DNA of 64,000 nt from an uncultured Acidobacteriota bacterium. GTDB lineage: Bacteria > Acidobacteriota > JAQAZP01. The stretch lies in contig CAWIIB010000009.1 of the NCBI GenBank assembly GCA_963836075.1, positions 3,330,442 through 3,394,441 on the forward strand, read 5' to 3'. This document shows, piece by piece, positions 10,724 through 57,958 of the stretch. Position 1 is the first letter of the stretch; every line of letters begins with the position of its first letter. A model generated the notes under the pieces. That model did no database searches. It saw only the letters and a list, made by a program, of their open reading frames with translations, and was not told the DNA's origin. The position numbers were made by a program, and so were the translations under genes.

Positions 10724-10825
10724 ACCGGCGATTGACTGCATGTCGGCGGTGACATATCCTTCAGTTGCTGTTTTTCCACTCGATCTACAACGGGATCAGA
10801 TTGTTACGGATCGCGAAGGAGGACC

Positions 10826-12106: not shown

Positions 12107-12113
12107 CCGAACC

Positions 12114-13301: not shown

Positions 13302-13681
13302 AGGGCCGGACCATCATGACCGGCAGGGCTGAAGGCCGGGCGCTGGTTTCGCGGACGCCGATCAGTTTCTACGGCGGGGTTGACGCCAAAACCGGGATGA
13401 TCATCGAGCAGGGGCACGAACTGGAGGGGCAGTGTCTCAGCGGCACGATCCTCGTCTTCCCCTGCGGCAAGGGCTCCACCGTGGGCTCCTACGTGATCTA
13501 CGGCCTGCAGAAGAACGGCGTGGCCCCGCTGGCCATCGTCAACGAGGAGACGGAGACCATCATCGCCACCGGCGCCATCCTCGCCGGGATTCCCTGTGTG
13601 GACGGGGTCGACATCAGCGGCATCAGCAGCGGCGACAGACTGCGGGTGGACGGCGCCGCCGGCCTGGTGGAAAAGGACTGA
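13298..13681 (+). CDS. aconitase X swivel subunit-like (DUF126); candidate phosphomevalonate dehydratase small subunit
   Basis: ~127 aa, translationally coupled to the preceding gene; ...LVFPCGKGSTVGSYVIYGL... Confidence 0.55.
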   Translation: MKGRTIMTGRAEGRALVSRTPISFYGGVDAKTGMIIEQGHELEGQCLSGTILVFPCGKGSTVGSYVIYGLQKNGVAPLAIVNEETETIIATGAILAGIPCVDGVDISGISSGDRLRVDGAAGLVEKD

Positions 13682-13688
13682 ACCGGAG

Positions 13689-14471
13689 ATGGGACAGCAA
13701 CTGGTTTTCGTCAAGCTGGGCGGGTCGCTGATCACCGACAAGACGAAGCCGTACACCGCCAGGCCTGAAGTGATCGCCCGGGCGGCGTCCGAGATTCACC
13801 GGGCGCGGAACAAGGCCGGTCTGGCCCTGCTGGTGGGCCACGGCGGCGGCAGCTTCCCCCATGTCAGCGCCGCAAAGTACCGGATTCACAAGGGAGCCTC
13901 CGATGCCCGGGGCTGGGAGGGTTTTGCCAGGGTGCAGGCCGATGCGGCGCGACTGAACCGCATGGTTGTTTCGGCGCTGCTGGAAGCCGGGGAACCGGCC
14001 ATCTCCGTCCAGCCTTCGGCGGCCTGCCTGGCCCGGGACCGCCGTCTGGAGCGCTGGGATGGCCAGGCGCTGGAGCAGTGCCTGGCCCGGGGCCTGGTGC
14101 CGGTACCTTACGGCGATGTCTGTTTTGACGAGGCCCGGGGCTGCTGCATCCTCTCCACCGAGGAGATCTTCCGCTTTCTCGCTCCGCGGCTCCGACCTGC
14201 GCGGATCATCATGGCCGGCAAGACCGACGGCGTGCTGGACGAGGAGGGGAACACCGTCCCCGAGCTCACCCCCGCGGACCTCGGTCGAATGAAGAGTGCA
14301 CTCTCCGCCTCGGACGGCGTGGCCGACGTCACCGGCGGCATGGTGCACAAGGTGGAGAGGGCCCTGGAGACCGGTGTGGCCACCCTGATCATCAACGGCC
14401 TGCGGCCCGGGGAACTGGAGAAGGCCCTCCTCGGCCGCCCGGTGGCCGGCACGCTGGTCACCCGCGGCTGA
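13689..14471 (+). CDS. isopentenyl phosphate kinase (amino-acid kinase family)
   Basis: N-terminal MGQQLVFVKLGGSLITDK nucleotide-binding motif; ...VGHGGGSF...; ~260 aa. Confidence 0.7.
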   Translation: MGQQLVFVKLGGSLITDKTKPYTARPEVIARAASEIHRARNKAGLALLVGHGGGSFPHVSAAKYRIHKGASDARGWEGFARVQADAARLNRMVVSALLEAGEPAISVQPSAACLARDRRLERWDGQALEQCLARGLVPVPYGDVCFDEARGCCILSTEEIFRFLAPRLRPARIIMAGKTDGVLDEEGNTVPELTPADLGRMKSALSASDGVADVTGGMVHKVERALETGVATLIINGLRPGELEKALLGRPVAGTLVTRG

Positions 14472-21499: not shown

Positions 21500-21973
21500 T
21501 CAGGACGACCCGCCTCGTCCGGGACCCTGGCCGTGACGCGTTCGGCCCTGGCCACCCTGCCAGTGGCCCTGGTTGTTCCATAGCGGAATCTGGTGCAGGG
21601 ACCGGAGGCGCACCATCAGTCCCCGGGACGTGTTGAGGACCTTGTGGGCCTTGCCGGGCCCCTCATCTCCGACAAAGTACTTGACCTTCAGCTGGTCCCC
21701 CGGCTCGACGGAGAATCCGATGTCATCCATCGCTTGCGGCGGGGCGAGGAGAATGGTCACCGGGTGATCTTTGTCACCTTTCGGGGCGAGGCTTACCTGC
21801 ACCACTTCGATACCGCCCTCACCGGCAATGCGGCTGACCGTCAGCACTTCGCCCTCCACGGTCTTCAGCGAGGAGCGGGGGGCAGGCCCGTCCGACCCCT
21901 CTGCCGAGACGGCCAGGCCCAGCAGCAGGCCGCAGCAGAGAAGGAGCAGACTGTAGTGGCGGAACAGCCTCAC
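21500..21973 (-). CDS. small secreted protein with Gly/His/Gln-rich C-terminal tail
   Basis: GTG start with RBS GGGAGGAG; GTGA overlap with upstream gene stop; signal peptide RLFRHYSLLLLCCGLLLGLAVSA; tail ...HWQGGQGRTRHGQGPGRGG. Confidence 0.5.
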   Translation of the reverse strand: MRLFRHYSLLLLCCGLLLGLAVSAEGSDGPAPRSSLKTVEGEVLTVSRIAGEGGIEVVQVSLAPKGDKDHPVTILLAPPQAMDDIGFSVEPGDQLKVKYFVGDEGPGKAHKVLNTSRGLMVRLRSLHQIPLWNNQGHWQGGQGRTRHGQGPGRGGSS

Positions 21974-22947
21974 AGGACGTCTCCTCCCAACCAGAGCCGG
22001 CCCGGCGTGTGGCGGCCCACGGAGATCCCGATGGCCAGCGAGACGTCCGGCGACGCGTTCCCCAGGCCCACCAGCACCCGGCCATACCAGCGGTAGCGGC
22101 CGGTGGTCCGCACGGATGCGCCGAAGTTGAACACCTCGCCCGTGTCCTCCACGGCTTCCTGTGCCGCGCTGATCCAGCCGGCAAGTATCACCCGGTCGGA
22201 GGCCAGCGGGTCGCTCTCCATCCCCACGTTGAGATCCAGCACGTCGTTCAGTTCGCCCCACGAGGGATCGCCCAGCCAGTTCCAGCCGATCCGGCCGTAG
22301 AGTGTGGATGACCAGAAGCGGTAGCCGCTCCAGAAACCGATCCGGTAGTCGGTCTCACCGGTGCCCATGCCATTGTCGGCGTCGGCTGTGGGGAGTTTAA
22401 CTTCCAGTTCGGCATCCAGGCGAAAAACTTTCACGCCGCCGCCCACCAGGCGCCGGGAGAGGGCTACGAGGATGTCCCCGATACCGTTGGCCGTTTCGTC
22501 ATAATGTGAAATATCGCCTTCACCCCCGTCGCCACCTCCGCCTCCGCCTCCGCCACCACCGCCACCACCGCCACCACCGCCACCGCCACCGCCGCCGTCA
22601 CCACCGCCACCACCACTGCCACCACCACTGCCGCCACGCCGCCTTCTCTCGTTCTCCCCGCCCACCGGCATGGTTCCGGCGCCGGTGCGTACCACGCTGT
22701 AGGACGTGTCCATCACCAGGTAGGGCAGATTGACCCTCAGCTGCCAGGCATCGCCGAGAATGTACTGCAGGTTCGCGGCCCAGGTGTCCACCTTGTCGTC
22801 GGTGCCGTAGTCGCCGGTGGTCCAGGAGGTGATCAGGGTCCATTCGCCCACCGGTTCGGCCACTGCCGCGGTGGAGGTGAGCAGTGCGAGGGCGAGGAGC
22901 AGGGCCTGGACGAATCGGCAACAGCCGGCAGTTCTGTTCCACCTCAT
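21970..22947 (-). CDS. secreted / putative outer-membrane protein with ~35-residue poly-Gly tract
   Basis: Signal peptide MRWNRTAGCCRFVQALLLALALLTSTAAVA; internal GGSGGGSGGGGGDGGGGGG... tract; alternating beta-strand-like C-terminal half. Confidence 0.45.
   Translation of the reverse strand: MRWNRTAGCCRFVQALLLALALLTSTAAVAEPVGEWTLITSWTTGDYGTDDKVDTWAANLQYILGDAWQLRVNLPYLVMDTSYSVVRTGAGTMPVGGENERRRRGGSGGGSGGGGGDGGGGGGGGGGGGGGGGGGGGGGDGGEGDISHYDETANGIGDILVALSRRLVGGGVKVFRLDAELEVKLPTADADNGMGTGETDYRIGFWSGYRFWSSTLYGRIGWNWLGDPSWGELNDVLDLNVGMESDPLASDRVILAGWISAAQEAVEDTGEVFNFGASVRTTGRYRWYGRVLVGLGNASPDVSLAIGISVGRHTPGRLWLGGDVL
22528..22646. repeat. GCC/ACC trinucleotide simple-sequence repeat (encodes poly-Gly on minus strand)
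   Basis: Directly visible run gccacctccgcctccgcctccgccaccaccgccaccacc... across ~120 bp. Confidence 0.85.
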
Positions 22948-22950
22948 GGA

Positions 22951-24315
22951 TCAGCCTTTCATCCCGTATTTCGAGATCTTGTAGCGCAGGGCCCGTTCCG
23001 ATATCCCCAGCTTGCGGGCGGCGCGGGACTGCACGCCGCTGGCCGCGGCCAATGCCTCGGTGATGGCCGATTTCTCCATCGCCGCTACCCGGCCGGGCAG
23101 CGAGTCGTTCTCTTCGTCCTGCGGGGCGCCGTTCTCGTGGCGCGATCCCAGCACCGCCGGGGGAAGGTCGCCGGCGGTGATCTGGTTCCTGCGGGCCAGC
23201 ACCATGCCTCGTTGCACGGCGTTCTCCAGCTCGCGGACATTGCCCGGGAAATCGTAGGCGATCAGCAGGTCCATGGCCTCCCGGGAGATCGACGCGGCGG
23301 TGCCGTCTTCGCCGTGCTTGGACAGGAAGTGATCCACCAGCAGCGGAATGTCCGATTTGCGATTGCGCAGCGGCGGGATTTCAATATTCACCACGGCCAG
23401 CCGGTAGAAAAGGTCATCCCTGAAGTCGCCCTTTTCGATGGCCTCCGGCAGGTTGCGGTGGGTGGCGGCGATAACCCGCACATCCACCGGCACGGTGGTG
23501 TTGGATCCCACGCGCTCCAGGGATCTCTCCTGGAGCACCCGCAGCAGCTTGACCTGGACCTCTGCCGGCAGGTCCCCGATCTCGTCGAGGAAAATGGTGC
23601 CGCCGGAAGCAACCTCGAACCGCCCCTGCCGCTCGCGATCGGCCCCGGTGAACGCCCCCTTCTCGTGCCCGAAGAGCTCGCTCTCCAGCAACTGGCTGGA
23701 GAGGGCGCTGGCATTCACGGCCACGAACGGGCCGCCGGCCCGGGGGCCGGCCCCGTGAATCGCCCGGGCCACCAGTTCCTTTCCCGTGCCGCTTTCCCCC
23801 TGCACCAGCACCGAGACATCGGAGCGGGACACCCGGGAGATGAGGGAGAGCACCTCGCTCATCACCCCGCCGGCGGTGACGATGCCGGGCACCGACTCGA
23901 ACCTGGCCAGCCGCGCCTTGAGGTCAATGTTTTCCCGGTGCAGCCGGCGTGCATCCAGCAACCGTCGCACCAGGTGTTCCACCTCGTCCAGGTCCAGAGG
24001 TTTGAGCAGGTAGTCCGCCGCCCCCTGTTTGAGACAGGCCACCGCATCCTCCACCGTACCAAAGGCGGTGGCCAGGATCACGGCCACTTCGGGGTTGACC
24101 CGCTGGATTTCCTCCAGCAGATGGGTCCCGTCCATCCGCGGCATTCGGATGTCGCTGATACAGAGGTCCGGTGCCTGCCGCACCACGGCATCCAGTGCCT
24201 CCCGGCCGTCGCCGGCCTCGGTCACTTTGGCGCCGAGGTCGCGGAGAAAGCCTGCAAGTTCTTCGCGCTGGGAGCGGTCGTCGTCCACCACCAGAATGCG
24301 GGCATCGAGGTTCAT
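22951..24315 (-). CDS. sigma-54-dependent response regulator (NtrC family)
   Basis: Receiver domain (ILVVDDD...DLCISDIRMP), AAA+ sigma54-interaction domain (GESGTGKE, GAFTGA), C-terminal HTH. Confidence 0.9.
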   Translation of the reverse strand: MNLDARILVVDDDRSQREELAGFLRDLGAKVTEAGDGREALDAVVRQAPDLCISDIRMPRMDGTHLLEEIQRVNPEVAVILATAFGTVEDAVACLKQGAADYLLKPLDLDEVEHLVRRLLDARRLHRENIDLKARLARFESVPGIVTAGGVMSEVLSLISRVSRSDVSVLVQGESGTGKELVARAIHGAGPRAGGPFVAVNASALSSQLLESELFGHEKGAFTGADRERQGRFEVASGGTIFLDEIGDLPAEVQVKLLRVLQERSLERVGSNTTVPVDVRVIAATHRNLPEAIEKGDFRDDLFYRLAVVNIEIPPLRNRKSDIPLLVDHFLSKHGEDGTAASISREAMDLLIAYDFPGNVRELENAVQRGMVLARRNQITAGDLPPAVLGSRHENGAPQDEENDSLPGRVAAMEKSAITEALAAASGVQSRAARKLGISERALRYKISKYGMKG

Positions 24316-25943
24316 ACTGTTTCTCCGTCGCCGCCGGCGGGCAGCTTCAACCGGGCCAGCGCACCGCCATTTTTCCTGCTGCGCAGGGTCGCCGAACCGC
24401 CGTGTTCTTCAGCCACCCGCCGGACCAGGGCCAGACCCAGGCCAACACCGCCGGCCTGGTTGGTGACAAAGGCGTCAAACAGCTGCTCCGCCGTGGCGTC
24501 ATCCACCCCGGGGCCTTCATCCGACACGCCCACCTGGACGAACCCGTTCGCTGCCGTGGTCTCCACTCGAACCTCGCCGCCGGCCGGGCTGGCCTGGATC
24601 GCGTTGCGCACCAGGTTGATCAGCGAACGGCGGATCGACTCCGGGTCCACCGGGGCCGGACAGGGGGGGCCGGACAGGGTGAGGCGCACGCCGGTGGATT
24701 CGGCCTCGTCGGTGAGCAGCTCCACCACCTCACCGGAGATGACCCGGAGATCGGTCTGTTTCCTGGACCGGCCCACCGGGCTGGCCAGTTCGAGGAATTC
24801 GCGAAGAATCGCTTCCAGCCGTCCTATCTCGCCGCGGACCTTGGCCGCAAAACGACCCACATCGTCCTGCGGTGGGTGAGTCCGTCCGATACGCTGTGCG
24901 GCGAGGCTGATGGCGTTGAGCGGCGACCGCACCTCGTGAGCCAGGCCGGCGGTGAGGGCGCCGGCGGCCGCCAGCCGCTCACTGCGCCTCCGTGCCGTCT
25001 CCACCTCGGCCAGACGCCGGGCCGCCGCTTCACGCTCCACGGCGCGACTTCTGGTGAGCAGGGCGATGAAGACCAGGGCCAGACTGAACACGGAGAGCAC
25101 GATGCCCACCATGGCCGTCCGGCGCACCGCGGATGCCGAAGCCGCGGCCAGGGGCCGCCCGTCCATCCCCACCCGCAGCGATGCCTGAAAACCGGCCGGT
25201 GCGCTCACCGGTACCACCACCTCGTACACTTCGCGGCCGCGCACCGTGCGACGGCCGTCACCTGCGTCCAGTCCCGGCGGGATCGGTTCGCCATCCCAGC
25301 TGGCCTCCAGCGGCTCCCCACCCGGGGAGACGGTGTAGCCGAGGTAGAGCACGCCTCCGGACCCGGCCAGCCGTTGGAGCAGGTTGGCCGCGCCGATGGT
25401 GCCGGAGAAGGCGAGGTTTGACCGTGCGTGCACCCTGACGATTACAGCGCCGCCGTCGACTGTCCGCACCACAGCAGCGATGTGTTCCACGCCGTCTTCC
25501 ATCTGTGGCCCGAGGATCATCTCGTCGGCCTTTCCCTCGATCACTTCAACCGCCTGCCGGCGCAGCGCATCGGGAACCGGTGCTCCCACGGATACGCTCT
25601 GGCTGCCCGCCCGGTCGAGGTGGACGATGGAGTCGAGGTCGTTCTGTTCTGCCAGGGCACCGGCTGCAGCAGCGGTGAGGCCGCCGGATTGCTGCAGGAC
25701 GGCGAGAATCCGTGTGTTTTCAAGAACCTTGGCCGTGGAGGTCTCCTCGATCTCCCGGGCCGCGGTGGAAGCCGCTTCGAGGCCCGGACCGAGGGTGCGG
25801 GCGAGGAGAGTGGCCTGGGCGGCCAGCACCTCGGCGGTTTCCCGCCGCTGGTTACGCCCTTCGTGGATCGCCCATGCGGCCAGTGCCATGGCGAGCACCA
25901 GCAGCGGAATCATGGTCGTCAGTGTTCGGAGCCTTCTCAACAT
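24312..25943 (-). CDS. sensor histidine kinase
   Basis: N-terminal TM segment, periplasmic region, second TM; H-box ...LAHEVRSPLNAI...; HATPase_c region; ATGA overlap with regulator gene. Confidence 0.8.
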   Translation of the reverse strand: MLRRLRTLTTMIPLLVLAMALAAWAIHEGRNQRRETAEVLAAQATLLARTLGPGLEAASTAAREIEETSTAKVLENTRILAVLQQSGGLTAAAAGALAEQNDLDSIVHLDRAGSQSVSVGAPVPDALRRQAVEVIEGKADEMILGPQMEDGVEHIAAVVRTVDGGAVIVRVHARSNLAFSGTIGAANLLQRLAGSGGVLYLGYTVSPGGEPLEASWDGEPIPPGLDAGDGRRTVRGREVYEVVVPVSAPAGFQASLRVGMDGRPLAAASASAVRRTAMVGIVLSVFSLALVFIALLTRSRAVEREAAARRLAEVETARRRSERLAAAGALTAGLAHEVRSPLNAISLAAQRIGRTHPPQDDVGRFAAKVRGEIGRLEAILREFLELASPVGRSRKQTDLRVISGEVVELLTDEAESTGVRLTLSGPPCPAPVDPESIRRSLINLVRNAIQASPAGGEVRVETTAANGFVQVGVSDEGPGVDDATAEQLFDAFVTNQAGGVGLGLALVRRVAEEHGGSATLRSRKNGGALARLKLPAGGDGETV

Positions 25944-25971: not shown

Positions 25972-26487
25972 TTAGCGACCGCCTCCGCAACTTCCGCCGC
26001 CGCCACCGCCGCCGCCGCGGGAGCCGCCATTGCCGCCTCGTTGACCGCTGCCGCTGCCGGTCCCGGGGCATTTCGGGTTCTGGATGCCGTCTCCGGGTAT
26101 TCCGCCGCAGGAGCCATCCCGGGTACGGGTCCTGGTCCACTGCTGGTTCATCTCACCGGTCCCGTTGCGGAACTTATACGAGGCACCGGTACGCCGGACT
26201 CTCATCCCCCGGGCCAGGGGAATACCGTCTTTCTCCATTCCGTCCAGCAGGTCGAGGCGCACCTGGTCACCGTCCAGCACCAGGCCGCGGCAGGTGCCGG
26301 CCTCGCCCAACCGGACCTGCATCCGCTGGCCTCCGGTGGTGAGGATGGTCAACTGGTCGAACCCCTGGGCGTCGGTCAATTCCACGACCCTGCCCTGGAT
26401 GCTGGGCGCCTGACTGTCACCCGCCATGGCGGTCGCCGCGCAGATGGCAAGTGTCAGGATCCACAATGCTGCGGTTCTCGTTTTCAT
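25972..26487 (-). CDS. small secreted protein with Gly-rich C-terminal tail
   Basis: RBS GAGGGAGGGAG; signal peptide MKTRTAALWILTLAICAATAMA; tail ...GSGSGQRGGNGGSRGGGGGGGGSCGGGR. Confidence 0.5.
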   Translation of the reverse strand: MKTRTAALWILTLAICAATAMAGDSQAPSIQGRVVELTDAQGFDQLTILTTGGQRMQVRLGEAGTCRGLVLDGDQVRLDLLDGMEKDGIPLARGMRVRRTGASYKFRNGTGEMNQQWTRTRTRDGSCGGIPGDGIQNPKCPGTGSGSGQRGGNGGSRGGGGGGGGSCGGGR

Positions 26488-26579: not shown

Positions 26580-27050
26580 TTAGCGGAGAGCGAGCGCAAA
26601 GTCCTGAACCAGGGTCTCACCCTCGGCGACGGTCACCGGAGTCAGTTCGGTGGGCAGGTAGCCGCAGGCGCAGGCGCGCATCAGGTAGTCAGCGGCATCG
26701 AGGTTTTCAATGACATAGACGCCGTTGGCATCGGTCTCGACCCGGGTGGCCATTCCCGCGCCGCCGCCGTGGTAACCGCCGCCAAAACCACCGCCACCGC
26801 CGCTGCCGGATCCGCCGCCGCTGCCCCAGCCGTGGTCGCCGCCGTGGAACTGCGAGCCGCCGCCGCCGCTGCAGCCGTCCGCCGGGCGGATGGTCACGAA
26901 GGCTCCTTCGATGGGCAGACCGGTGTCCGCGTCGGTCACCGTGCCGGTGACCGTGGCTGTCTGGGCCATGGCGGTGGCGCCGGTCAGGGCCACGGCCGCC
27001 ACAAAGATGAGGGCAGTCTTGATCAGCGATGATTTCGTGAGTTTGAACAT
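26580..27050 (-). CDS. secreted carboxypeptidase-regulatory-like domain protein with Gly/His-rich insert
   Basis: Signal peptide; ...TATVTGTVTDADTGLPIEGAFVTIRP... and ...TDANGVYVIENLDAADY... flanking a GGGGSQFHGGDHGWGSGGGSGSGGGGGFGGGYHGGGAG insert. Confidence 0.5.
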   Translation of the reverse strand: MFKLTKSSLIKTALIFVAAVALTGATAMAQTATVTGTVTDADTGLPIEGAFVTIRPADGCSGGGGSQFHGGDHGWGSGGGSGSGGGGGFGGGYHGGGAGMATRVETDANGVYVIENLDAADYLMRACACGYLPTELTPVTVAEGETLVQDFALALR

Positions 27051-36173: not shown

Positions 36174-36509
36174 ATGGCCGACGAACGGAGGAGACCGAAA
36201 AGAGAGGAGACCGGGCCAGGTCCCGGTGGCCTCGGTGATGTGTTTGCCGGACCCGAAACGGGCGGGGCGGTAACGGTTTGCCATGGACCGTACAGCGAGG
36301 ATCTGCCGGTGGGCAACATGAGTGTGGGTGAGGTCCGGCGCCGGTTCTCGGACCGCCTGGACATCGACCCCCAGAGCCAGGCGGTGATCGACGGCAACGA
36401 GGTGGACGACAGCACCGTGCTGCGCGGCGGCCAACTGCTGGCCTTTATCCGGCAGGCTGGTGAAAAGGGCGGGAGGAGACGGTCCCACGGGGGAGGATCG
36501 CCATGTTGA
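36174..36509 (+). CDS. small beta-grasp-like protein with internal Gly-Gly and short C-terminal extension; candidate ubiquitin-like modifier precursor
   Basis: RBS GGAGGAG before ATG 36174; ...GGQLLAFIRQAGEKGG followed by RRRSHGGGSPC; ThiS/MoaD/ubiquitin-like size. Confidence 0.45.
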   Translation: MADERRRPKREETGPGPGGLGDVFAGPETGGAVTVCHGPYSEDLPVGNMSVGEVRRRFSDRLDIDPQSQAVIDGNEVDDSTVLRGGQLLAFIRQAGEKGGRRRSHGGGSPC

Positions 36510-37453
36510 GCAAGCTGGCCGCAAGGCGGGCGGAGGCGCGGTCCGCTTCGCGCCGGCAGACGGTGCACCAGGTGACCATCAAGGGTGAGCTGGTCTCCAC
36601 GGCCACCCCGGAGGGGCAGCCGGTCTGCATGAAACTGAAGGACCTGCTGGGGCTGATCTCGACCCACGGGGATCGATCGCTGGAGACCGGAGGCCTGTTG
36701 CCCGACGGGGTCAAGCTGGTCCGGTCCCGGGGGCCGGTGACCGTCTGGACCTACCAGCGGCCACCCCAGGTGCACAACCTGAGGTGGATCGCCGCCGACT
36801 CTCCCGTGCCGTTCGGAAAGGGCAGCACCTACCGCTCGGTGCGTATCGCGCTGCCCTACCTGGTGGTGCTGGCCGTGTTTATCACCGGGAGGAACAACCG
36901 TCTGCAGCTGTCGCAATACAACGAGTGCTTTTTCCGCAACGAACCTCTGAAGAGTGTTGAGGACCAGCTGTTCTACCCGGCACTGCTCAACTGTTCGAAG
37001 TTCAACCCGCAGGAGGGGCACCCGCTTTCCTGGATCTGCACCGCAAATATGGACCTCAGGCGTCTGGGCCGGCTCCCGGACGAGAACGAACGGATGCGGG
37101 GCAGTATGAATGCTCTGCTGCACTGCCTGCTGGAAACCGGTTACAACCATTCCAGCGAACACCACGAGGAGACAAGCTGGTTCACCGAGTCCGCCACGGT
37201 GGACCCGCGGGTCGCCACCGTCGAGAGGTGGGAGCAGGCCACCGCCAAAGACAGTCTTTTCGTCCTTGACGTCCCCTGGCTCAAAACCGGCAGGAGCCTG
37301 GGGCAGGTGATCGAAAGGATATTCGACAATGCCGGCAGTTCCCGCGGACGGCTGGCCACTTCCAATGACCTGATGCGGCTGATGGCCAACAACAGCGAGC
37401 GGCTGCCGGCGAAGGAAGAAGCGCAGGGGGTATTTATCGATGAACTGTTCTGA
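36503..37453 (+). CDS. hypothetical protein (operon member)
   Basis: 316-aa ORF overlapping previous stop by 7 nt; contains a hydrophobic segment (LPYLVVLAVFI); no motif recognised. Confidence 0.4.
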   Translation: MLSKLAARRAEARSASRRQTVHQVTIKGELVSTATPEGQPVCMKLKDLLGLISTHGDRSLETGGLLPDGVKLVRSRGPVTVWTYQRPPQVHNLRWIAADSPVPFGKGSTYRSVRIALPYLVVLAVFITGRNNRLQLSQYNECFFRNEPLKSVEDQLFYPALLNCSKFNPQEGHPLSWICTANMDLRRLGRLPDENERMRGSMNALLHCLLETGYNHSSEHHEETSWFTESATVDPRVATVERWEQATAKDSLFVLDVPWLKTGRSLGQVIERIFDNAGSSRGRLATSNDLMRLMANNSERLPAKEEAQGVFIDELF

Positions 37454-38348
37454 GGACAGACTGCTCACGCCGATCTACCTGCGGACGAGCGAGGAGATGC
37501 ACTGGCCGGAGGACACGGTGTTTTACATGCTCACCGGCAGCGGTCTCTTTCTCTGCCGCAACAACGAGCACTTCCGCAGCTGTGTTCCGGCCCGCGGCTG
37601 GCCCGGGGAACTGCCCGGTCAGGAAAAGTTCCTCGATCTGCACTATCCCCGGCTGCCCCGGCGGCTGCTGGAACGGGCGGTGGGCTTTTTCGAAGCGGTG
37701 GGGCGCAAACACGATGCGGAAGCGGCACTGCTCCTGGCCTGGGACAGCGAGCGCGAGGTTTACCGCCTGGTGATTCCCCGGCAGCGTTGTACCGTGTACC
37801 TCAACTGGCAGGGGGACACCTCGCCCCAGGGCGTGCACTACGACCTTCCGGAACGCGTGCCCGAGACCTGGATCATTGTTGGCGACATCCACAGCCACGT
37901 CGATTTTTCGGCATACTCCTCGGCCACCGACCAGCACGACGAGCACTACCGCACTGGTCTGCACATCGTGGTGGGCCGCATCTACGACGAGCCGCCCCAG
38001 TTTCATGTGGAAGCCACGGTGGACGGTATGCGCTTTCCCGTCCAGCCGGAGGATATTTTCGAGGGCTACGATTCCCGGAGAAGCGATTTCCCCGAGCAGT
38101 GGTTCGACTGGCTGAAGATCGAACTCGGTTCCGCTTTCACATACTCGGACAGCAGCAAATGGAGTTCCGGCACTGGTTCCTCCGGCTGCAGCGGCCATGG
38201 CCACACGGCCTGTTCACCGATGCCGGCCCCCCGGGGCGGTACCACCGGTTATTCGGTCGCTCCGCTGGAAACGTATCGCAGTTCGGGAAACGGCGGGAAA
38301 AAGAAGGGCGGTGGCCGCAACCGTGACGGCCGGGGGAAACGTCGATGA
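37440..38348 (+). CDS. JAB/MPN (JAMM) metallopeptidase; candidate deubiquitinase/Ubl-processing peptidase
   Basis: Exact JAMM motif H-x-H-x7-S-x2-D in ...IVGDIHSHVDFSAYSSATDQHDE... with upstream Glu; Gly/Ser/Lys-rich C-terminal tail. Confidence 0.75.
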   Translation: MNCSEDRLLTPIYLRTSEEMHWPEDTVFYMLTGSGLFLCRNNEHFRSCVPARGWPGELPGQEKFLDLHYPRLPRRLLERAVGFFEAVGRKHDAEAALLLAWDSEREVYRLVIPRQRCTVYLNWQGDTSPQGVHYDLPERVPETWIIVGDIHSHVDFSAYSSATDQHDEHYRTGLHIVVGRIYDEPPQFHVEATVDGMRFPVQPEDIFEGYDSRRSDFPEQWFDWLKIELGSAFTYSDSSKWSSGTGSSGCSGHGHTACSPMPAPRGGTTGYSVAPLETYRSSGNGGKKKGGGRNRDGRGKRR

Positions 38349-39175
38349 GCGGGGTCGGGAGGGAACAGGTGGTTCTGATGCCCGCTCTGGCCGACCACAC
38401 GGCGGTCAAAATCATCGGTCTGGGCGGAGTGGGCGGCATCGTGGCCCGCTACCTGTCCATCTTCCTCGCCTCGCTGGACCGCGACCTGCGGCTGGTGCTC
38501 ATCGACGGCGACGAGTTCGAGCCGTCCAATGCCACACGGATGCTGTTCTCCGATCACGGCAACAAGGCCGCGGTCACTCGCGCCGAACTCCGGGAACGCT
38601 TTGCCGACACGTCCCTCATGCTGACTGCCGTGGAGCAGTATGTGAAGCCGGACAACATTCACCGCCTGATTCAGAATGATGACGTGGTCATCCTGGCCGT
38701 GGACAACCACGCCACGCGAAAGCTGGTCAGCGAGCACTGCCGGAGCCAGTTGAACGACGTGTGCCTGATCTCGGGGGGGAATGACGGCGTGGGCCCCGAC
38801 GGGTCGGGTTCCCGGCGGCGGGGCACATACGGCAACTGCCAGATTTATTTGCGCCGGGGCGGCCGGGATCTATGTCCCCCGATCACCCGGTATCATCCCG
38901 AGATCCGGGAACCGGCGGATCACAGCCCCGCCGAGGAGAACTGCACCGAACTGATCAAGTCGGTGCCGCAGATCCTGTTCGCTAACCTGGCCGCGGCATC
39001 GGCCATCCTCAACGCCTTCTGGCTCCATTGCTGCTCCGCGCTGCACTACAGCGAACTCAGCTTCGACATTGCCGATGGTCTGATGCGGCCCATGCCCCTG
39101 CCGGCCCCTCTCGTCATCGCGAGGAGCCCGAAGGGTGAAGCGGCGCTCTCTTCGGATGTCTTTCCGGTTCAATGA
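38345..39175 (+). CDS. E1-like ThiF/MoeB-family adenylyltransferase
   Basis: ATGA overlap with JAB gene; nucleotide-binding ...VKIIGLGGVGGIVARYL... and ...LIDGDEFEPSNATRMLF... motifs. Confidence 0.75.
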   Translation: MSGVGREQVVLMPALADHTAVKIIGLGGVGGIVARYLSIFLASLDRDLRLVLIDGDEFEPSNATRMLFSDHGNKAAVTRAELRERFADTSLMLTAVEQYVKPDNIHRLIQNDDVVILAVDNHATRKLVSEHCRSQLNDVCLISGGNDGVGPDGSGSRRRGTYGNCQIYLRRGGRDLCPPITRYHPEIREPADHSPAEENCTELIKSVPQILFANLAAASAILNAFWLHCCSALHYSELSFDIADGLMRPMPLPAPLVIARSPKGEAALSSDVFPVQ

Positions 39176-44958: not shown

Positions 44959-47244
44959 TCAATAGTCGGATTCGGGCAGGCCCATTCCGGAGCGGTCGGG
45001 CCATGCGGGAACCGGGGCCGCCTTGAAAGCGCCGGTCTTCGCTTCCTCGATCATCTGTTCGATGGCCCGGTCCAGCTGCGGGTCACCGCCGTCCACCATC
45101 AGGGCCGGGTCATCCAGCACCTCGATGTCTGGATCCACGCCGTGGCCCTCGATGCCCCAGGTGCCGTCAATGTCGTAGAAGGCGAAGGACGGGGTGGTCA
45201 CGCCGGCGCCGTCCAGCAGCGGCGGGCCGCCGCCGATGCCCACCAGACCGCCCCAGGTGCGGGTGCCGATCAGCTTGCCCAGTTTGTTGTGCTTGAAGAG
45301 GTAGGGAAAGTGGTCCCCGCCCGATCCGGCCAGGCCGTTGATCAGCATGCACTTGGGACCGTGGTGCGCGTCCTGGGGCCAGACCACCTGGCCCTTGAGG
45401 TCACGGACCGACCAGTAGTTGGTGATCGGCCGGTTGAGCAGTTCGATGAAGCGGGTGGGCACCTGGCCGCCGCCGTTCCAGCGTTCGTCGATGATCAACG
45501 CTTCCTTCTCGATCTGGCCCACGAACTGGCGCACCAGTTCACTCTGGCCCTGGATGCCGGTATTGGGCACGTAGATATAGCCCACCTTGCCGCCCGATTT
45601 GCGGTCCACATACTGCCGGTTGGCTTCCACCCAGGCCCGGTAGCGCAGGTCGCCGTCGTTGCCCAGCAGCTCAACCAGCACCTGGCGGTCATTTTCACCG
45701 CTATTCGGCTCTTCGCTCACCGTCAGACGCACGGTCTGCCCGGCCTTGCCCACAAAGGAGGCCCAGGGGTCGCGATTCGTGTCCACCGGAACGCCGTTAA
45801 CCGCCAGCAGGTAGTCACCGACCTTGACGTCCACTCCGGGCTGGCTCAGCGGGCCGCGGGCATCCACGTCCCAGGGGCCGCCCTCGAGAATCAGCGAGAT
45901 GCGGTAAGCGCCGTCGTTCAACTCGAAGTCACAGCCCAGCATGCCGGTGGGCAGTTGGGGCGGGTTCTCGTTGTCACCGCCGAAGTAGTAGGTGTGGCCA
46001 ACGTTCAGCTCGGCGATCAGTTCGCGGAGAATGAAGCCCACGTCCTCGCGGGAGGTGCACTCCTCGATGAGCGGGGCATACTGCTCACGGACGGCTTCCC
46101 AGTTCAGGCCGTGCATGTTGGGGTCGTAGAAGAAATCGCGCTCGCGGCGCCAGACTTCGTTGAAGATCTGCCGCCACTCCTCGCGGGGGTTCACCGTGGC
46201 CAGCATGCCGCCGGTGGGAACCATCTCCTCCAGCTTCTGGTCCGCAGCGGCGTTGATGATCGCCATCGCCCCGCCCTCGTTGACCACCAGCAGCTTCTTG
46301 CCGTCGGCGGAAATGTCCACCAGGTTGACCCCGCCGGCCACCGTTTTGACCTTCTCCTTCTCGTCGTCGAAGTCGAAGAGGTGGATGGTGGGTGGCCCCT
46401 GGGTCCCGGGAGCCGGGGCCTTGGCAAAGATCAGCTTGTTTCCGTCGTTGACACAGAGGCCGAAGAAGGCGCCCTTGTCCATGGGCAGGGCGATGGCCCG
46501 CTGTTCGAACCCCTCGAGGTCTATTTTCAAGGGGTCTTCTTCCTCTTCCTCAGCTTCGCCATCCTTGTCCTTGTCTTCGCCCTCGTCTCCGTCCTTGGCC
46601 TCTCCGTCCTCCTTCTCATCGCCGTTTTCGTCCTTCTCCTCCTCGATCTCCTCGTCGTCGCTCTTCGGGGCCAGCGGGTTTTCCACGTCGGCGTTCAGCG
46701 GCACGGCGTAGAGCCGGTCGGTGGCGGTGTAGACCCAGGTGGTGTCCACGTCGGAGTAAATCGGACTGCTGAAGTCACGATTGCTGGCGAAAAAGAGAAA
46801 CTTGCCTTCACGGTCGAAAGTGGGCCAGGTGATGCCGAACATCGTGTCGGTCACCTGGTGCTTTTTACCGGCGGCCATCTCGTAGAGGAAGATCTGGTTC
46901 GGACCGCGAAGGCTGGTGCCGCGGGCCCAGGCCAGCCAGTTGGAGTCGTGGGACCAGCTGAGGCTGGTTGCTCCCGGGCCCAGCTGTTCCTCGATCACCT
47001 TCGCTTCCTTTGATTCAACATTGTAGAGATAGAGTTTGCCGCTTTTTTCCCAGAAGGCGATCCACTCGCTGTCCGGGGACCAGTTGGCCGCGAAGTAGTA
47101 GGAGGGCGGCAGGTCGGTGACCCTTTCCGCTTCAGCCGGAGCTGTCGGCGGCACTGATGTAGAGCTGGTATTCACCGGTCCCGTCGGAGAACCAGGCGAT
47201 CCACTTCTTGTCCGGGCTGAACGTCGGATAGCGCTCGGCGGCAC
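44959..47244 (-). CDS. tricorn protease homolog, C-terminal part (PDZ plus peptidase domains)
   Basis: Tricorn-like length; acidic linker; ...GLAGSGGDHFPYLF... and ...TWGGLVGIGG... catalytic region; upstream end overlaps 47132..48298 in another frame. Confidence 0.6.
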   Translation of the reverse strand: MPPSAIRRSARTRSGSPGSPTGPVNTSSTSVPPTAPAEAERVTDLPPSYYFAANWSPDSEWIAFWEKSGKLYLYNVESKEAKVIEEQLGPGATSLSWSHDSNWLAWARGTSLRGPNQIFLYEMAAGKKHQVTDTMFGITWPTFDREGKFLFFASNRDFSSPIYSDVDTTWVYTATDRLYAVPLNADVENPLAPKSDDEEIEEEKDENGDEKEDGEAKDGDEGEDKDKDGEAEEEEEDPLKIDLEGFEQRAIALPMDKGAFFGLCVNDGNKLIFAKAPAPGTQGPPTIHLFDFDDEKEKVKTVAGGVNLVDISADGKKLLVVNEGGAMAIINAAADQKLEEMVPTGGMLATVNPREEWRQIFNEVWRRERDFFYDPNMHGLNWEAVREQYAPLIEECTSREDVGFILRELIAELNVGHTYYFGGDNENPPQLPTGMLGCDFELNDGAYRISLILEGGPWDVDARGPLSQPGVDVKVGDYLLAVNGVPVDTNRDPWASFVGKAGQTVRLTVSEEPNSGENDRQVLVELLGNDGDLRYRAWVEANRQYVDRKSGGKVGYIYVPNTGIQGQSELVRQFVGQIEKEALIIDERWNGGGQVPTRFIELLNRPITNYWSVRDLKGQVVWPQDAHHGPKCMLINGLAGSGGDHFPYLFKHNKLGKLIGTRTWGGLVGIGGGPPLLDGAGVTTPSFAFYDIDGTWGIEGHGVDPDIEVLDDPALMVDGGDPQLDRAIEQMIEEAKTGAFKAAPVPAWPDRSGMGLPESDY

Positions 47245-48298
47245 CGCTGGTGCGGGTGAAGTTCACCGGCGAGCCGTTTTTGGCCGGCAAAGTCCAGACG
47301 TCGCCCCGGGCGCCCACGGCAACCCGTTTGCCGGTGGGGGAGAGGGAGCGGCTGAACAGCGATTCGGAGGCGTCCTTTATCTGGGGACGGATCTGGGGAC
47401 GGGCGCCGGGGATGGTGACCTGCACCGCAGTGCTGCCGCCACCGGCCAGGTCGAGCAGGCGCAGCTCGGCGCCCAGCTGGTAGACAATCTGGTTCGGGCC
47501 GATGGAAGGCCATTTCACGTCATAGGAGGCGTGGTCGGTCACCTGGGTGCGTGTGCCGTTCTTCGTATCGTAGGACCAGATGTTCAGCCGGTGTTCCGGG
47601 CCGTTGTCCGAGAGGTAGTAGAGGGTATCGCCGTGCCACATGGGGTAGGTGTCGGTACCTTCCCAGTCGGTGATCTTTTTGGAAGTGTTCTTCTTCAGGT
47701 TAATCAGCCAGATATCGGTGGCCATCCCGCCGCGGTAGCGTTTCCAGTTGCGGAAGTCCCGGGAGTGGGGGGTGTAGGCCAGCCACTTGCCGTCGTCGCT
47801 CACCGCGCCGTTGGCGCCGTAGGGCACCGGCATCTTTTCCGGCAGGCCGCCGTCCGCCGCCACCGTGAACAGCTCCCTGGTGCGGGGGTTGAGGCCGATA
47901 CCGCCGGCGTAAAAGATCAGTTCACCGTCCGGGGTCCAGTCGCAGAGCGTCTCGCCGGTGGGGTGGTGGGTCACCCGGAACGGTTCGCCGCCGGCCACCG
48001 GGATGGTGTAGAGGTCCTGGCCACCGTCGTAGTTGCCCATGAAGGCGATGGTCTTGCCGTCGGGACTGAACTTGGGGAATACCTCGCCCCCGGGCGGGCT
48101 GGCCAACGGCACGGCCGTGCCGCCGGTGACCGGGACCAGCCAGAGGTCATTGGAGTAGCGGAAGACGATATGCGAGTCACTGACATCAGGGAAGCGGATC
48201 ATTCCGGTGTCCGATGTTCCCGCCCAGGCCGTTGCCCCGGCCAGGGCCAGGATGGTGATCAGCAGGGGTATCCCTGTCCAGAACCGTTTTCCGCTCAT
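47132..48298 (-). CDS. tricorn protease homolog, N-terminal beta-propeller part with signal peptide
   Basis: RBS AAGGAGAG; signal peptide MSGKRFWTGIPLLITILALAGATAWA; PD40-type blades (...FSPDGKTIAFM..., ...SDDGKWLAYT..., ...FSPDKKWIAWF...). Confidence 0.6.
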   Translation of the reverse strand: MSGKRFWTGIPLLITILALAGATAWAGTSDTGMIRFPDVSDSHIVFRYSNDLWLVPVTGGTAVPLASPPGGEVFPKFSPDGKTIAFMGNYDGGQDLYTIPVAGGEPFRVTHHPTGETLCDWTPDGELIFYAGGIGLNPRTRELFTVAADGGLPEKMPVPYGANGAVSDDGKWLAYTPHSRDFRNWKRYRGGMATDIWLINLKKNTSKKITDWEGTDTYPMWHGDTLYYLSDNGPEHRLNIWSYDTKNGTRTQVTDHASYDVKWPSIGPNQIVYQLGAELRLLDLAGGGSTAVQVTIPGARPQIRPQIKDASESLFSRSLSPTGKRVAVGARGDVWTLPAKNGSPVNFTRTSGAAERYPTFSPDKKWIAWFSDGTGEYQLYISAADSSG

Positions 48299-48689
48299 CT
48301 GACGCTCTCCTTTGTTTGATGGCTCCCCGGCCCGATGGCGCCGCAACCCTGCGCCGCCACAGTTATGGGGGATCGTCACTCCCCAACCGCCGGCCGGCGG
48401 CCGGGAGTCGATTCGTAACATGAGTGAACATACACCGGAGTTCCGCACCCCAGGCTCCAGGCCGGAAGTCCGCTCTCACCCCGGTATTTCCCTTCTATAA
48501 CGCAGAAGGAAGCTCCAGGTTCCATTAATGATGGAACGTGTTTGTCTACTATATCAGCAGTTTACCCTGTGGGGATAGTGAAGCGGGGTTGGTTCAGGTC
48601 ATGGTCTATTGCTCCTCGCACCGGTCGCGTAACGCTCCGACGTCGCTCGGATGCAACAAAGCATGATCTGAACTCAATTTTTGGAGTAT

Positions 48690-55009: not shown

Positions 55010-57958
55010 ATGCGCTCTTATTTGATGCTGCTCACCGTTCTGCTACTGGTTTCGATCATTGCTGGCCCCGCCATGCCCGTCCTTGCCGCGCCCGAAGCGC
55101 TGATCATGGTGGAGGCGGAGAGTGATTCAGCGGTGGAGGCGCTGGAGAGCGCCGGGGCCCCGGTCTGGTCCAGCGTGGGCCCGTACATCCTGGCCGGCGC
55201 CGACAGCCGGCTGGAGGCCGAACTCCGCGCCACGGGCGCCTGGGTGGTGGACCGGCATCCCTGGTCCGACGGCTCCTCCTATTACTGGGTGCACAGCGAC
55301 CCTGCCGCACAGGTTGACCTGGCCCGGTACCCGGGCGTGGAAGTGCTGCACCAGGAACCGGGGCTGGCCCTGGTCAAGGCCAGCGCAATGGCAGCCGAAC
55401 CGCTGGCGCGTTCACGGTTCGACCTGGTGCACGTGGATCGCACCCGCAAGACCCTGGATGTGGTGGCTCCGGCCGCAGAGCGGACCGGGGACCGCGAGTT
55501 CGGCGGCGACATCGACACCATGGTGGCCGGAATCATGCAGTTCAACTACAGCGGCGTGGTCCAGACCCTGCAGAACTTTGGTACCCGCTACACCTACACC
55601 ACCGGCGTGGACGATGCCGCGGACTGGATGTTCACCAGGCTCCAGGGCTACGGTTATGACGTGGAGCGGCACTACTTCGACATCGGCGCCTACTCCAAGC
55701 AGAACATCATCGCCACCAGGACAGGTCTGGTCTACCCCGACGAGGTGGTGCTGATCTGCGGCCACTACGACTCCACCTCGGACGACCCCGAAAACCTGGC
55801 CCCCGGCGCCGATGACAATGGCAGCGGCACGGCCGCCGTGCTGGAAGCGGCCCGGGTGATGGCCGGCTACGAGTTCGAACGGACGGTGGTCTTCGCCACC
55901 TTTGCCGGCGAGGAGCAGGGGCTTTACGGCAGCGGGGCCTATGCCGCGGACCTGGCCGCGGCCGGTACGAACGTGGTCGGCTGCTACAACTACGACATGA
56001 TCGCCTGGTCGGGCTCCGACACCGCACCGCCCGACCTGATCCTCTACACCAATGGCGGCGCGTCCACCGACCTGGCCAACCGGGTCCGCGACGCGGCCCT
56101 CCACTACGTCCCCACCGGGGTGGAGCCGGTGGTGGTCCCCGAGGCGATGACCGCCAGCGACCACGCCTCCTTCTGGAGCCAGGGCTACCCGGCCATCTGC
56201 GGCATCGAGGCCGAAGCCTGGAGCAGCGATTTCAATCCCTATTACCACACCACCAACGACACGGTGGCCAACTGCGACATGGCGTACGCCACCGCCTGCA
56301 CCAAAGCCGCGGTGGCCGCGGTGGCCGAGCACGCCTCGCCGCTGGTGGTGGACGGCCCGTATCTCGCACTCCACGACATGGTGGTGGACGACGACATGAG
56401 CGGCGCCAGCTTCGGAAACGGCAACGGCACAGTGGAGCCGGGCGAGATCGTCGAACTGACCCTGACCCTGCGCAACGTGGGTACCGAGGACGCGGTGGCG
56501 GTCAGCGGCACCCTGTCCACCACCTCTTCATACGCTGCGGTGAGCACGGCAACCCAGAGCTACGGCACTATCCTTTCGGACAACGGCACCGGCACGTCGG
56601 CCGGCCCCTACGTCTTCAGCGTCACCATGGACCTGCCCGACGGATACGAGATCCCCTTTGTCCTGGCGGTGACCGAAGCCCCGGCGACCATCGGCTTCGA
56701 CATCGCGGCCGCCGCGCCGGCGCTGGCCTACGCCGGACGAAGCGTGGACGATTCGGCCGGCGACGGTGACGGCATCGTCGATCCGGGGGAGACCGTCCTG
56801 CTGCAGATCGACCTGCGCAACGAAGGCTCGGTGGGGGCCACCGGGGTGGGCGGCACGCTGAGCACGTCCAACCCCCAGGTCACCGTGACCGACAACACGG
56901 CGGACTGGCCCGACATCTCCAGCGGCGCCAGCCAGGCGTCCCTGGCCCCGCACTTCACGGTGAGCTTCGGCGGCGGCCTCTCCTACGGTGAAACGGTGAG
57001 CTTCGACCTGGACACCGTAGCCGCCGAGGGCACGGGCAGCGTGACCTTCGACCTGGTGGTGGGCCAGGCCGTGCTCTTCTTCGACGACATGGAGGGGGGC
57101 GAGAACGGCTGGACCCACTACGAGGTGGCGGCCCAGGACGACTGGATGCTCGGCTACCCCGGCCCCAACGGCAACGACCCGGACGCGCCCTGGTCGGGCA
57201 TGAACCACTGGGGCAACGACCTGGCCCCCGACGGCTGGAACGGCGATTACTACGCCAACGTGCACAACTACCTCCAGTCGCCGGCCATCGACTGCAGCGG
57301 GTATGCCGGGGTGACCCTCAACTACATGCGCTGGCTCACTGTCGAGGACGCAATCTTCGACCAGGCCACCATCTATGTCAACGGCACCCAGGTCTGGCAG
57401 AACGCCGTGGGCGCCGACCACCTGGACAGCGAGTGGACGGTGCACGAGATCGACATCTCGGCCATTGCCGACGACAACCCGGCGGTGGTGGTGGAGTTCC
57501 ACATGGAGAGCGACGGCGGGGTGGAGTTCGGCGGCTGGAACATCGACGACTTGAGCCTGCTGGCCTTCGACCAGGGCGGCGGTCCGGTGGCCACCGTGGC
57601 CGCCACGCTGACCTGCGATCCCTCGGCGGGCACGGTACCTTTCGGCACGGCCATGTCCATCACCCTGGGCAATCTCTACGGCGGGTTCACCCGGACCATC
57701 TCCGGCCACATCGACATCACCGTGGCCGGGGGGAGTTACTTCCCCAACTGGCGCGCCGGGTACACCAACGTGGCTCCGGGGGGTAGTTACACCGCCAGCT
57801 GGGTGACCACCATCCCGGCCCTGGGGTCGGTGATCGGCGACAACTACTTCGAACTGGTGGTGGAGGACGTGACCGCAGCGCCGTACAACCAGCCGCCCTA
57901 TCCCGCGTCGGGCGATACCGACATGGACGGTTGCACGGTGACCGGTATCGCGCCGTAA
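55010..57958 (+). CDS. secreted M28-family zinc aminopeptidase with lectin/MAM-like domain and shared C-terminal domain
   Basis: Signal peptide; M28 metal-ligand motifs (...LICGHYDS..., ...DDNGSGTAAVLE..., ...FAGEEQGLYGS...); C-terminus ...SYFPNWRAGYTNVAPGGSYTASW...EDVTAAPYNQPPYPASGD...CTVTGIAP. Confidence 0.75.
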   Translation: MRSYLMLLTVLLLVSIIAGPAMPVLAAPEALIMVEAESDSAVEALESAGAPVWSSVGPYILAGADSRLEAELRATGAWVVDRHPWSDGSSYYWVHSDPAAQVDLARYPGVEVLHQEPGLALVKASAMAAEPLARSRFDLVHVDRTRKTLDVVAPAAERTGDREFGGDIDTMVAGIMQFNYSGVVQTLQNFGTRYTYTTGVDDAADWMFTRLQGYGYDVERHYFDIGAYSKQNIIATRTGLVYPDEVVLICGHYDSTSDDPENLAPGADDNGSGTAAVLEAARVMAGYEFERTVVFATFAGEEQGLYGSGAYAADLAAAGTNVVGCYNYDMIAWSGSDTAPPDLILYTNGGASTDLANRVRDAALHYVPTGVEPVVVPEAMTASDHASFWSQGYPAICGIEAEAWSSDFNPYYHTTNDTVANCDMAYATACTKAAVAAVAEHASPLVVDGPYLALHDMVVDDDMSGASFGNGNGTVEPGEIVELTLTLRNVGTEDAVAVSGTLSTTSSYAAVSTATQSYGTILSDNGTGTSAGPYVFSVTMDLPDGYEIPFVLAVTEAPATIGFDIAAAAPALAYAGRSVDDSAGDGDGIVDPGETVLLQIDLRNEGSVGATGVGGTLSTSNPQVTVTDNTADWPDISSGASQASLAPHFTVSFGGGLSYGETVSFDLDTVAAEGTGSVTFDLVVGQAVLFFDDMEGGENGWTHYEVAAQDDWMLGYPGPNGNDPDAPWSGMNHWGNDLAPDGWNGDYYANVHNYLQSPAIDCSGYAGVTLNYMRWLTVEDAIFDQATIYVNGTQVWQNAVGADHLDSEWTVHEIDISAIADDNPAVVVEFHMESDGGVEFGGWNIDDLSLLAFDQGGGPVATVAATLTCDPSAGTVPFGTAMSITLGNLYGGFTRTISGHIDITVAGGSYFPNWRAGYTNVAPGGSYTASWVTTIPALGSVIGDNYFELVVEDVTAAPYNQPPYPASGDTDMDGCTVTGIAP

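Follow-up and report, generated by a model that had tools for sequence, protein, structure and literature searches.

An uncatalogued C-terminal domain on unrelated secreted proteins of an uncultured Acidobacteriota bacterium, with a possible role in surface targeting

We analysed a 64,000-nucleotide stretch of DNA (hereafter the window) from an uncultured Acidobacteriota bacterium (assembly GCA_963836075.1, contig CAWIIB010000009.1, positions 3,330,442 to 3,394,441), in which three otherwise unrelated secreted proteins end in the same domain of about 120 residues. This C-terminal domain (CTD) is a previously uncatalogued domain family with a very narrow distribution and a heavy expansion where it is present. 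We consider the chances about even that it acts as a lineage-restricted C-terminal targeting or anchoring ("address") module.

Three secreted proteins of the window end in the same domain

The original prediction, made from the letters of the window, held that the C-termini of a beta-propeller protein, an FG-GAP protein and an M28 peptidase are homologous. All three open reading frames (ORFs) are present, and pairwise BLASTP confirmed the homology at 44-57% identity: 57% between the beta-propeller and M28 C-termini (121 aa; E 1.2e-49), 47% between FG-GAP and M28 (132 aa; E 1.9e-40) and 44% between beta-propeller and FG-GAP (121 aa; E 9.4e-34). A three-way alignment held 46 invariant columns and recovered the predicted consensus, including SYFPNWRAGYTN, EDVT, P(Y/F)N.PPY, GD and a terminal AP. 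The three copies, scored against a hidden Markov model (HMM) of 262 family members, and the genes that carry them are as follows:

57590-57955 (+): CTD copy 1, final 122 aa of the M28 peptidase; stop codon 57956-57958; HMM E 1.6e-55
10355-10720 (+): CTD copy 2, final 122 aa of the FG-GAP protein; stop codon 10721-10723; HMM E 5.5e-48
2683-3048 (-): CTD copy 3, final 122 aa of the beta-propeller protein; variant without cysteines (S and Q instead); HMM E 2.6e-52
55010-57958 (+): carrier 1, secreted M28 peptidase, 982 aa (Pfam PF04389, E 2.1e-36)
8203-10723 (+): carrier 2, FG-GAP repeat protein bearing a signal peptide, listed as ORFs 8203-9468 and 9488-10723
2680-5820 (-): carrier 3, SBBP/delta-60-repeat beta-propeller protein, ~1030 aa (NCBIfam delta_60_rpt, E 4.6e-16; Lepto_SBBP_lipo, E 2.9e-15)

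All three carriers bear signal peptides of the Sec type. In carrier 1 the signal peptide is followed by Peptidase_M28 (residues 232-436), two immunoglobulin (Ig)-like domains, a MAM-like domain and the CTD; the protein is 100% identical to P0186, encoded on a 3,516,849-bp contig that also bears P0016 and P0026 and of which the window matches one part without difference. Three-frame translation across 9380-9560 showed carrier 2 to be one gene split by a 1-nt indel near 9446. Its two halves match Pfam FG-GAP_3 (E 5e-60 and 2e-45), the upstream ORF encodes the signal peptide, and the frames rejoin as ...ESLIS followed by VLLGYGDGTFQ..., a canonical FG-GAP repeat unit. The ORF of carrier 3 opens with a TTG at 5820, and the true start is likely a Met near 5775, after which comes the signal peptide MIRKHIIVLSVFLTALLAVTAPAAVSA.

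In the coding DNA of the three copies (window G+C 64.3%) most synonymous positions differ, which argues for old paralogous domains under protein-level selection and not for a recent repeat. No fourth copy was found in the window, either by tblastn (next best E 0.18) or with the 262-member HMM. A weak tblastn match at 37582-37271 (-) was rejected as a chance hit, being antisense to a called gene and without HMM support.

The FG-GAP carrier is one of three window genes split by apparent single-base frameshifts. The others are a GT1 glycosyltransferase (about 1274-2630; split at about 2185) and a Tricorn protease (44959-48448, -; split at about 47140-47240), whose intact homologue on a related contig (L081) has 1,111 aa. 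Three similar splits on a single 3.5-Mb contig suggest assembly indel errors, and residual indels of this kind, rather than pseudogenes, are the simplest explanation.

The domain forms a small family confined to few genomes

Pfam-A (2025 copy) and NCBIfam (June 2026 copy), which are expected to hold models for type IX secretion system (T9SS) and PEP-CTERM signals, gave no model over the CTD, whether the queries were full proteins, 74 surveyed carriers or, at E ≤ 10, ten isolated domains. A profile search of the PDB found no sequence relative (best E 1.1). When 1.84 billion cluster representatives were searched exhaustively with a HMMER profile, 505 proteins were recovered at E ≤ 1e-3, 462 at E ≤ 1e-10 and 388 at E ≤ 1e-30. 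From these counts we conclude that the family has few members and a sharp boundary, and lacks a long tail of distant homologues. A word-indexed search gave 39 matches, mainly fragments, and the CTD was terminal in all of them.

Among species-representative genomes (185,579 species, one genome each) 107 matches were confirmed, and the 78 loci that were kept belong to three assemblies only: JAQAZP01 ("Acidobacteriota bacterium MAG_302_bin-08"), CBESOE01 (a metagenome-assembled genome, MAG) and CAWAUY01 ("Candidatus Sulfomarinibacteraceae", Thermoanaerobaculia; single locus). Once duplicates were removed, the fetched loci held at least 61 distinct carriers in JAQAZP01 and at least 36 in CBESOE01. 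In 241 million metagenome records 220 matches were found, and the listed loci belong only to the JGI series Ga0180429, Ga0180430, Ga0180435 and Ga0180436 and the assemblies RCNB, RCNC and RCNG. The suggestion in the original prediction that the module is lineage-specific is borne out by this distribution, and the search for further carriers with an HMM, which it had proposed, brought hundreds of homologues and dozens of carriers per MAG.

The genome of the window lies outside the species-representative set, with a best identity to a representative of 67%. Its EttA protein has relatives at 91-93% identity, followed by a drop to 79% (Nitrospirae, Desulfobulbaceae), and this gap therefore places the source organism in a deep lineage.

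A conserved loop and a covarying cysteine pair on a predicted Ig-like sandwich

An AlphaFold2 model of copy 1, built on a 27-sequence alignment, predicts an Ig-like beta-sandwich of 8 strands in which an ordered 16-residue loop joins strands 7 and 8 (mean predicted local distance difference test 94.4; predicted template modelling score 0.85). Conservation reaches 85% or more at 32 positions across the 262 copies, and the densest block falls in the strand 7-8 loop (D94-V-T-P-x-P-x-N-Q-P-P-Y-x-x-x-G-D), for which DVTPxPYNQPPYPxxGD is the near-invariant consensus. The last residue is Pro in 94% of copies and the end is Ala-Pro in 127 of 180. No low-complexity linker was found before the CTD.

A Cys in strand 1 (LTC.PS) covaries with a Cys in strand 8 (CTVTG). 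Of the 262 copies, 216 have both, 18 have one only and about 28 have neither, where about 5 Cys-less copies would be expected if the positions were independent. Because the pair covaries, we infer that a disulfide links the first strand to the last and that the domain therefore lives outside the cytoplasm.

In fold comparison the model matched best to RbmA, AlkC-Ig, transglutaminase barrels, GH3 modules resembling fibronectin type III (FnIII) domains and complement MG domains, and Foldseek was weakly concordant (best E 2.8e-4; RbmA template modelling score 0.72-0.73). No T9SS CTD appeared among the structural matches in either of the two fold-comparison lists. We therefore describe the predicted fold as an Ig-like sandwich and nothing more specific.

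The domain ends exported proteins with very different passengers

In 184 family proteins the CTD lies at the extreme C-terminus in 176 (~96%; 8 of them with tandem pairs), with a partial C-terminal match in 4 and an internal position in 4. Within the tandem proteins the ...AP end is kept in the terminal copy only, which is compatible with a free C-terminus being recognised or with protection against carboxypeptidases. By a crude heuristic, about 105 of 116 complete carriers have a Sec signal peptide. The passengers are diverse (58 Pfam families in 74 carriers) and include Beta_helix/NosD, FG-GAP, Peptidase_S8, C25, C1, M28, BNR, PA14, CBM96 and SBBP.

The "choice-of-anchor" names denote passenger domains found with differing C-terminal sorting signals; in NCBIfam, the carrier P0118 matches choice-of-anchor J (39.4 bits; cut-off 30) and another carrier matches the GloVer choice-of-anchor repeat. 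NCBIfam also finds M36-like regions in carriers, similar to peptidases that elsewhere depend on myxosortase or rhombosortase. P0118 (1,212 aa) combines a C25 gingipain/PorU-like peptidase domain with choice-of-anchor J and the CTD. Its C25 domain scores 60.7 bits against the cut-off of 420 for NCBIfam T9SS_sortase (PorU), and the protein is possibly a lead to a processing enzyme, or possibly just one more cargo protein.

Homologous M28 proteins carry T9SS-type domains in the same place

With the M28 passenger alone as the query (residues 1-860), the search recovered the window protein and M28 orthologues of ~850 aa with the same CTD (P0188-P0196). Many other M28 homologues of like length and architecture share 37-44% identity over 65-90% of the passenger, and their last ~75 residues are a T9SS-type CTD, for example:

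902-964 of 976: FlgD_ig, in M28 homologue P0197
936-1011 of 1014: Por_Secre_tail, in M28 homologue P0232 (candidate division LCP-89)

P0203 (Candidatus Eisenbacteria) is a further M28 homologue with a T9SS-type CTD. Some M28 homologues match the Dockerin_1 or SLH families somewhere along their length, and some end in an FG-GAP-like propeller (...VAAGRF). Since M28 homologues bear a T9SS CTD there, the new CTD fills a slot that evolution gives to targeting or anchoring modules.

No homology was detected between the new CTD and the T9SS-type CTDs of that slot. An hhalign comparison of the new CTD (262 copies) with 64 T9SS-type CTDs gave a probability of 0.2-0.5% (E 0.1-0.4), whereas a control comparison of the FlgD_ig-annotated CTDs with the Por_Secre_tail CTDs gave 99.9% (E 6e-34). 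Together with the empty Pfam and NCBIfam searches, this agrees with the original prediction, which could match the domain to neither T9SS nor PEP-CTERM signals. The new CTD is also distinct from the Ig-like and MAM-like domains of the M28 family (4-15%; Ig-like alone 4-5%), while the two M28 Ig domains compared with each other gave 100%.

Carrier neighbourhoods and the search for a partner

We assembled 160 related loci (1.49 Mb) with 1,082 called genes, of which 209 are carriers, and clustered the 873 non-carrier neighbours. Carrier genes often adjoin each other (32 adjacent pairs). The recurrent non-carrier families were 64 beta-helix plus FG-GAP-like paralogues, 25 sulfatase-family proteins, and histidine kinases and response regulators. 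Sulfatases were considered as a sorting enzyme or partner and rejected, as they adjoin carriers at 32% against a background of 31%.

The original prediction had also called for a co-occurring secretion or sortase-like system to be sought; that search was run on the window and the 160 loci and found none there. No T9SS machinery (SprA/Sov, PorV, PorU, GldK-N) was seen in the window or the carrier flanks. A C-terminal T9SS-type CTD was likewise absent from the window and the 160 loci, as judged by a T9SS HMM of limited sensitivity, trained on M28 homologues only, whose single match at E < 0.001 was an internal FlgD-Ig-like domain and no CTD. A regular-expression search found no PEP-CTERM-like tails in the 873 neighbouring genes.

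Other C-terminal ends and other loci

The window and the related loci hold further protein families with recurrent ends. A second expanded secreted family is present at 18679-21405 (-) of the window, in which a beta-helix (IHVPADQPTIQAGIDAA...) at the N-terminus precedes an FG-GAP-like propeller. Its 64 paralogues lie in 50 related loci (e.g. L004:9189-11705 and L049:9155-11542) and mostly end in ...HGxNVAAGRF, while the window copy ends in ...GGNIAGVRAE. The beta-helix module of this family is also found joined to the new CTD, and the propeller is the one in which some M28 homologues end; the ...VAAGRF propeller may be an alternative C-terminal module.

The 25 genes of the sulfatase/alkaline-phosphatase superfamily lie in 23 related loci (e.g. 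L017:4294-5889 and L057:1046-3262). Many of their products end in ...L(R/K)xLGY(V/L), such as ...LRALGYV, and some have an N-terminal membrane domain or TPR. A Phosphodiest-like ORF of the window (7-1419, +) ends in ...LQGLGYLEKDD. Two orthologues of ~1,090 aa, at L045:2916-6176 (-) and L057:6589-9897 (+), close with a hydrophobic helix and then RRRR (...LLPLALILLGLLTIAGGIYLLRRRR), a tail that could represent another sorting signal of the CTERM type in these genomes.

Elsewhere in the window, positions 5966-14471 hold a cluster that resembles an archaeal-type mevalonate pathway in a bacterial context, with a sigma-54 activator nearby and the FG-GAP carrier gene in its midst:

5966-6934 (-): GHMP (mevalonate-type) kinase
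6942-8018 (-): FMN-dependent IDI2-like protein
10826-12106 (+): UbiD-family decarboxylase
12114-13301 (+): AcnX (aconitase X), E 6e-156
13596-14471 (+): amino-acid-kinase-family protein (IPK-like)

Three small exported Gly-rich or poly-glycine proteins, one of them CarboxypepD_reg-like, are encoded at 21970-22947 (-), 25972-26487 (-) and 26580-27050 (-), where they flank a sigma-54 two-component pair (22951-25943). An island at 27343-39175, whose genes are mostly unannotatable, resembles a bacterial system for ubiquitin-like conjugation or defence, with these members:

29944-31191 and 38345-39175: ThiF/E1-like proteins
37440-38348: Prok-JAB
34340-36127: AAA ATPase

Discussion

Our results describe a domain family that closes dozens of unrelated exported proteins in a handful of genomes. 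Placement at the very end of ~96% of the proteins, diverse cargo with signal peptides, the slot otherwise held by a T9SS CTD and a carrier with choice-of-anchor J all speak for targeting. The original prediction had proposed "sorting, anchoring or secretion-recognition"; the conserved module on unrelated Sec-exported proteins stands, while the evidence for the function is circumstantial. We put the address reading, a lineage-restricted module for C-terminal targeting or anchoring, at roughly even confidence.

Such a module might work as follows. Carriers would cross the inner membrane via Sec, and their last ~120 residues would then fold in the periplasm into the predicted 8-strand Ig-like sandwich, with the putative disulfide stapling the first strand to the last. 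The sandwich would expose the Pro-rich loop (D-V-T-P-x-P-Y-N-Q-P-P-Y-P-x-x-G-D) and a free ...T-G-x-A-P carboxyl end, and a single common partner in the envelope may recognise the surface made by the loop and the C-terminus. In this way dozens of unrelated passengers could reach the cell surface or be retained there. The proposed logic is that of dockerin, SLH or T9SS-CTD tags, with a different fold family. We lean towards surface retention or attachment, as with dockerins and SLH domains, over a pure export signal, because the paralogues are tightly conserved, which fits one partner, and because tandem and internal positions are tolerated.

A bolder version, which we entertain tentatively, would make the CTD the cargo tag of an undescribed sorting or surface-assembly system in a deep uncultured lineage, with a translocon, sortase or receptor of its own. 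The CTD would then replace the T9SS-type CTD that related passengers bear in Candidatus Eisenbacteria and candidate division LCP-89.

Several observations weigh against an address function. Copies stand in tandem in 8 of the 184 proteins (e.g. P0040-P0044 and P0053) and internally in 4 (P0065, P0111, P0116 and P0173), and in P0111 the internal CTD sits between Peptidase_C1 and CBM96, which is typical behaviour for a binding or spacer module. The terminal Pro could simply guard against carboxypeptidases, and the fold is a generic one (Ig, FnIII, MG, CARDB-like). The Pfam annotation of the window's remaining genes contained no T9SS, type II secretion system, sortase or exosortase genes, and in the 160 loci no gene recurrently adjoined carriers and no partner or machinery gene was found. 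As their neighbourhoods hold no dedicated partner, carriers are scattered through the genome, as the cargo of known sorting systems tends to be, and the machine, if it exists, would be located elsewhere in the genome.

It is possible, if doubtful, that the CTD is an ordinary Ig-like accessory module without a sorting role, a substrate- or matrix-binding domain or a spacer of the kind seen in carbohydrate-binding modules (CBM), PKD, CARDB or RbmA-type FnIII domains, and that it stands at the C-terminus simply because such modules often do. The tandem and internal copies, including the arrangement in P0111, would then be expected, as would the lack of dedicated machinery nearby (window and 160 loci). 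A substrate-binding module would be unexpected, however, on 60 or more functionally unrelated proteins per genome, FG-GAP and beta-propeller proteins among them, and at the very end of ~96% of them. Nor does this explanation sit well with tight conservation at 32 positions concentrated in one long loop, with an AP end retained by the terminal copy only, or with a slot interchangeable with targeting modules (the T9SS CTD is located there, and Dockerin and SLH families are present in homologues). In profile comparison the CTD also resembled neither the Ig-like nor the MAM-like domains of the very protein that carries it.

We regard as improbable a highly divergent T9SS CTD, with export through a SprA/PorV-type translocon and subsequent removal of the domain by a PorU-like sortase. 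Much of the setting would suit it: the same slot as Por_Secre_tail and FlgD_ig CTDs in M28 homologues, the same spectrum of cargo down to a C25 gingipain/PorU-like peptidase, Sec signal peptides, many cargo per genome and a predicted Ig-like sandwich. The lack of a canonical T9SS CTD in the 1.49 Mb around carriers would even allow that the new CTD had replaced it. The domains themselves tell against this, with hhalign probabilities far below the control and no Pfam or NCBIfam match at E ≤ 10. Tandem and internal copies are, to our knowledge, not a T9SS CTD feature, and T9SS CTDs are usually much less alike among paralogues than the copies seen here. The carrier assemblies are labelled Acidobacteriota or Thermoanaerobaculia, where, as far as we know, T9SS is not typical; a literature search on T9SS or sorting domains in Acidobacteriota found nothing relevant. 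The idea that chance or the composition of a GC-rich genome (64% G+C, with plentiful spurious ORFs on both strands) produced the similarity is almost certainly wrong, refuted as it is by the BLASTP E-values and invariant columns, by hundreds of homologues at E ≤ 1e-30, by a confident AlphaFold2 fold and by synonymous divergence under amino-acid conservation.

The address reading matters since T9SS CTD, dockerin, LPXTG and PEP-CTERM tags each led to a dedicated secretion or anchoring machine, and with C-terminal tags the surface proteome of an uncultured organism can be inferred from its sequence. In the present case the CTD is a clean, well-conserved and confidently modelled tag; it marks at least 60 secreted proteins in one MAG of a poorly known lineage and has no catalogued model and no known partner. 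A profile of the CTD would immediately annotate these secretomes, and the near-complete 3.5-Mb genome makes a partner search by comparative genomics tractable. If the CTD is merely a binding module, it is a new domain family of modest interest.

Comparison with known systems

Among known systems the type A CTD of T9SS (PF18962 Por_Secre_tail/TIGR04183, often PF13860 FlgD_ig) is alike in being a C-terminal module on Sec-exported proteins, with an Ig-like sandwich fold (predicted for the new CTD), dozens of varied cargo per genome (C25, S8 and M28 peptidases, beta-helix and FG-GAP proteins) and an identical slot in homologous M28 proteins. Known T9SS CTDs are compact sandwiches of 7 strands and roughly 70-100 aa; the new CTD is longer, at ~120 aa, with a predicted 8 strands. 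It further differs from them in having no sequence or profile homology, a putative disulfide, a Pro-rich signature loop, tandem and occasional internal copies, and far more conserved paralogues.

PEP-CTERM, MYXO-CTERM and GlyGly-CTERM signals (served by exosortase, myxosortase and rhombosortase) are likewise C-terminal tags on many secreted proteins of a lineage, and the carrier passengers include choice-of-anchor J and M36-like regions that use such tags elsewhere. Those signals combine a short motif with a transmembrane helix and a basic tail, whereas the new CTD is a soluble beta-sandwich of 120 aa (as predicted) and its end, ...CTVTGIAP, has no hydrophobic helix.

The RbmA FnIII-like domains (PDB 4be5 and 4kkp), CARDB (3idu) and PKD (4xed) are beta-sandwiches like the predicted CTD, with 10-15% identity to it. 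They also occur away from the C-terminus and have no NQPPYP loop, and the CTD had no HMM match to PF07705, PF18911 or related Ig-like models even at E ≤ 10.

Type I dockerin (PF00404) with its cohesin, and SLH (PF00395), are like the CTD in being small folded modules, restricted to lineages, on many unrelated secreted enzymes, and in having highly conserved paralogues, presumably since all copies would bind one partner. Dockerin is a Ca-binding, EF-hand-like duplicated segment; the CTD, predicted to be all-beta, is unrelated in fold and sequence to dockerin and to SLH, with no Pfam match to either family at E ≤ 10. The CTD thus resembles the known C-terminal tags in kind. The discovery of a dedicated machine would raise it above them, an outcome that we think possible but rather unlikely.

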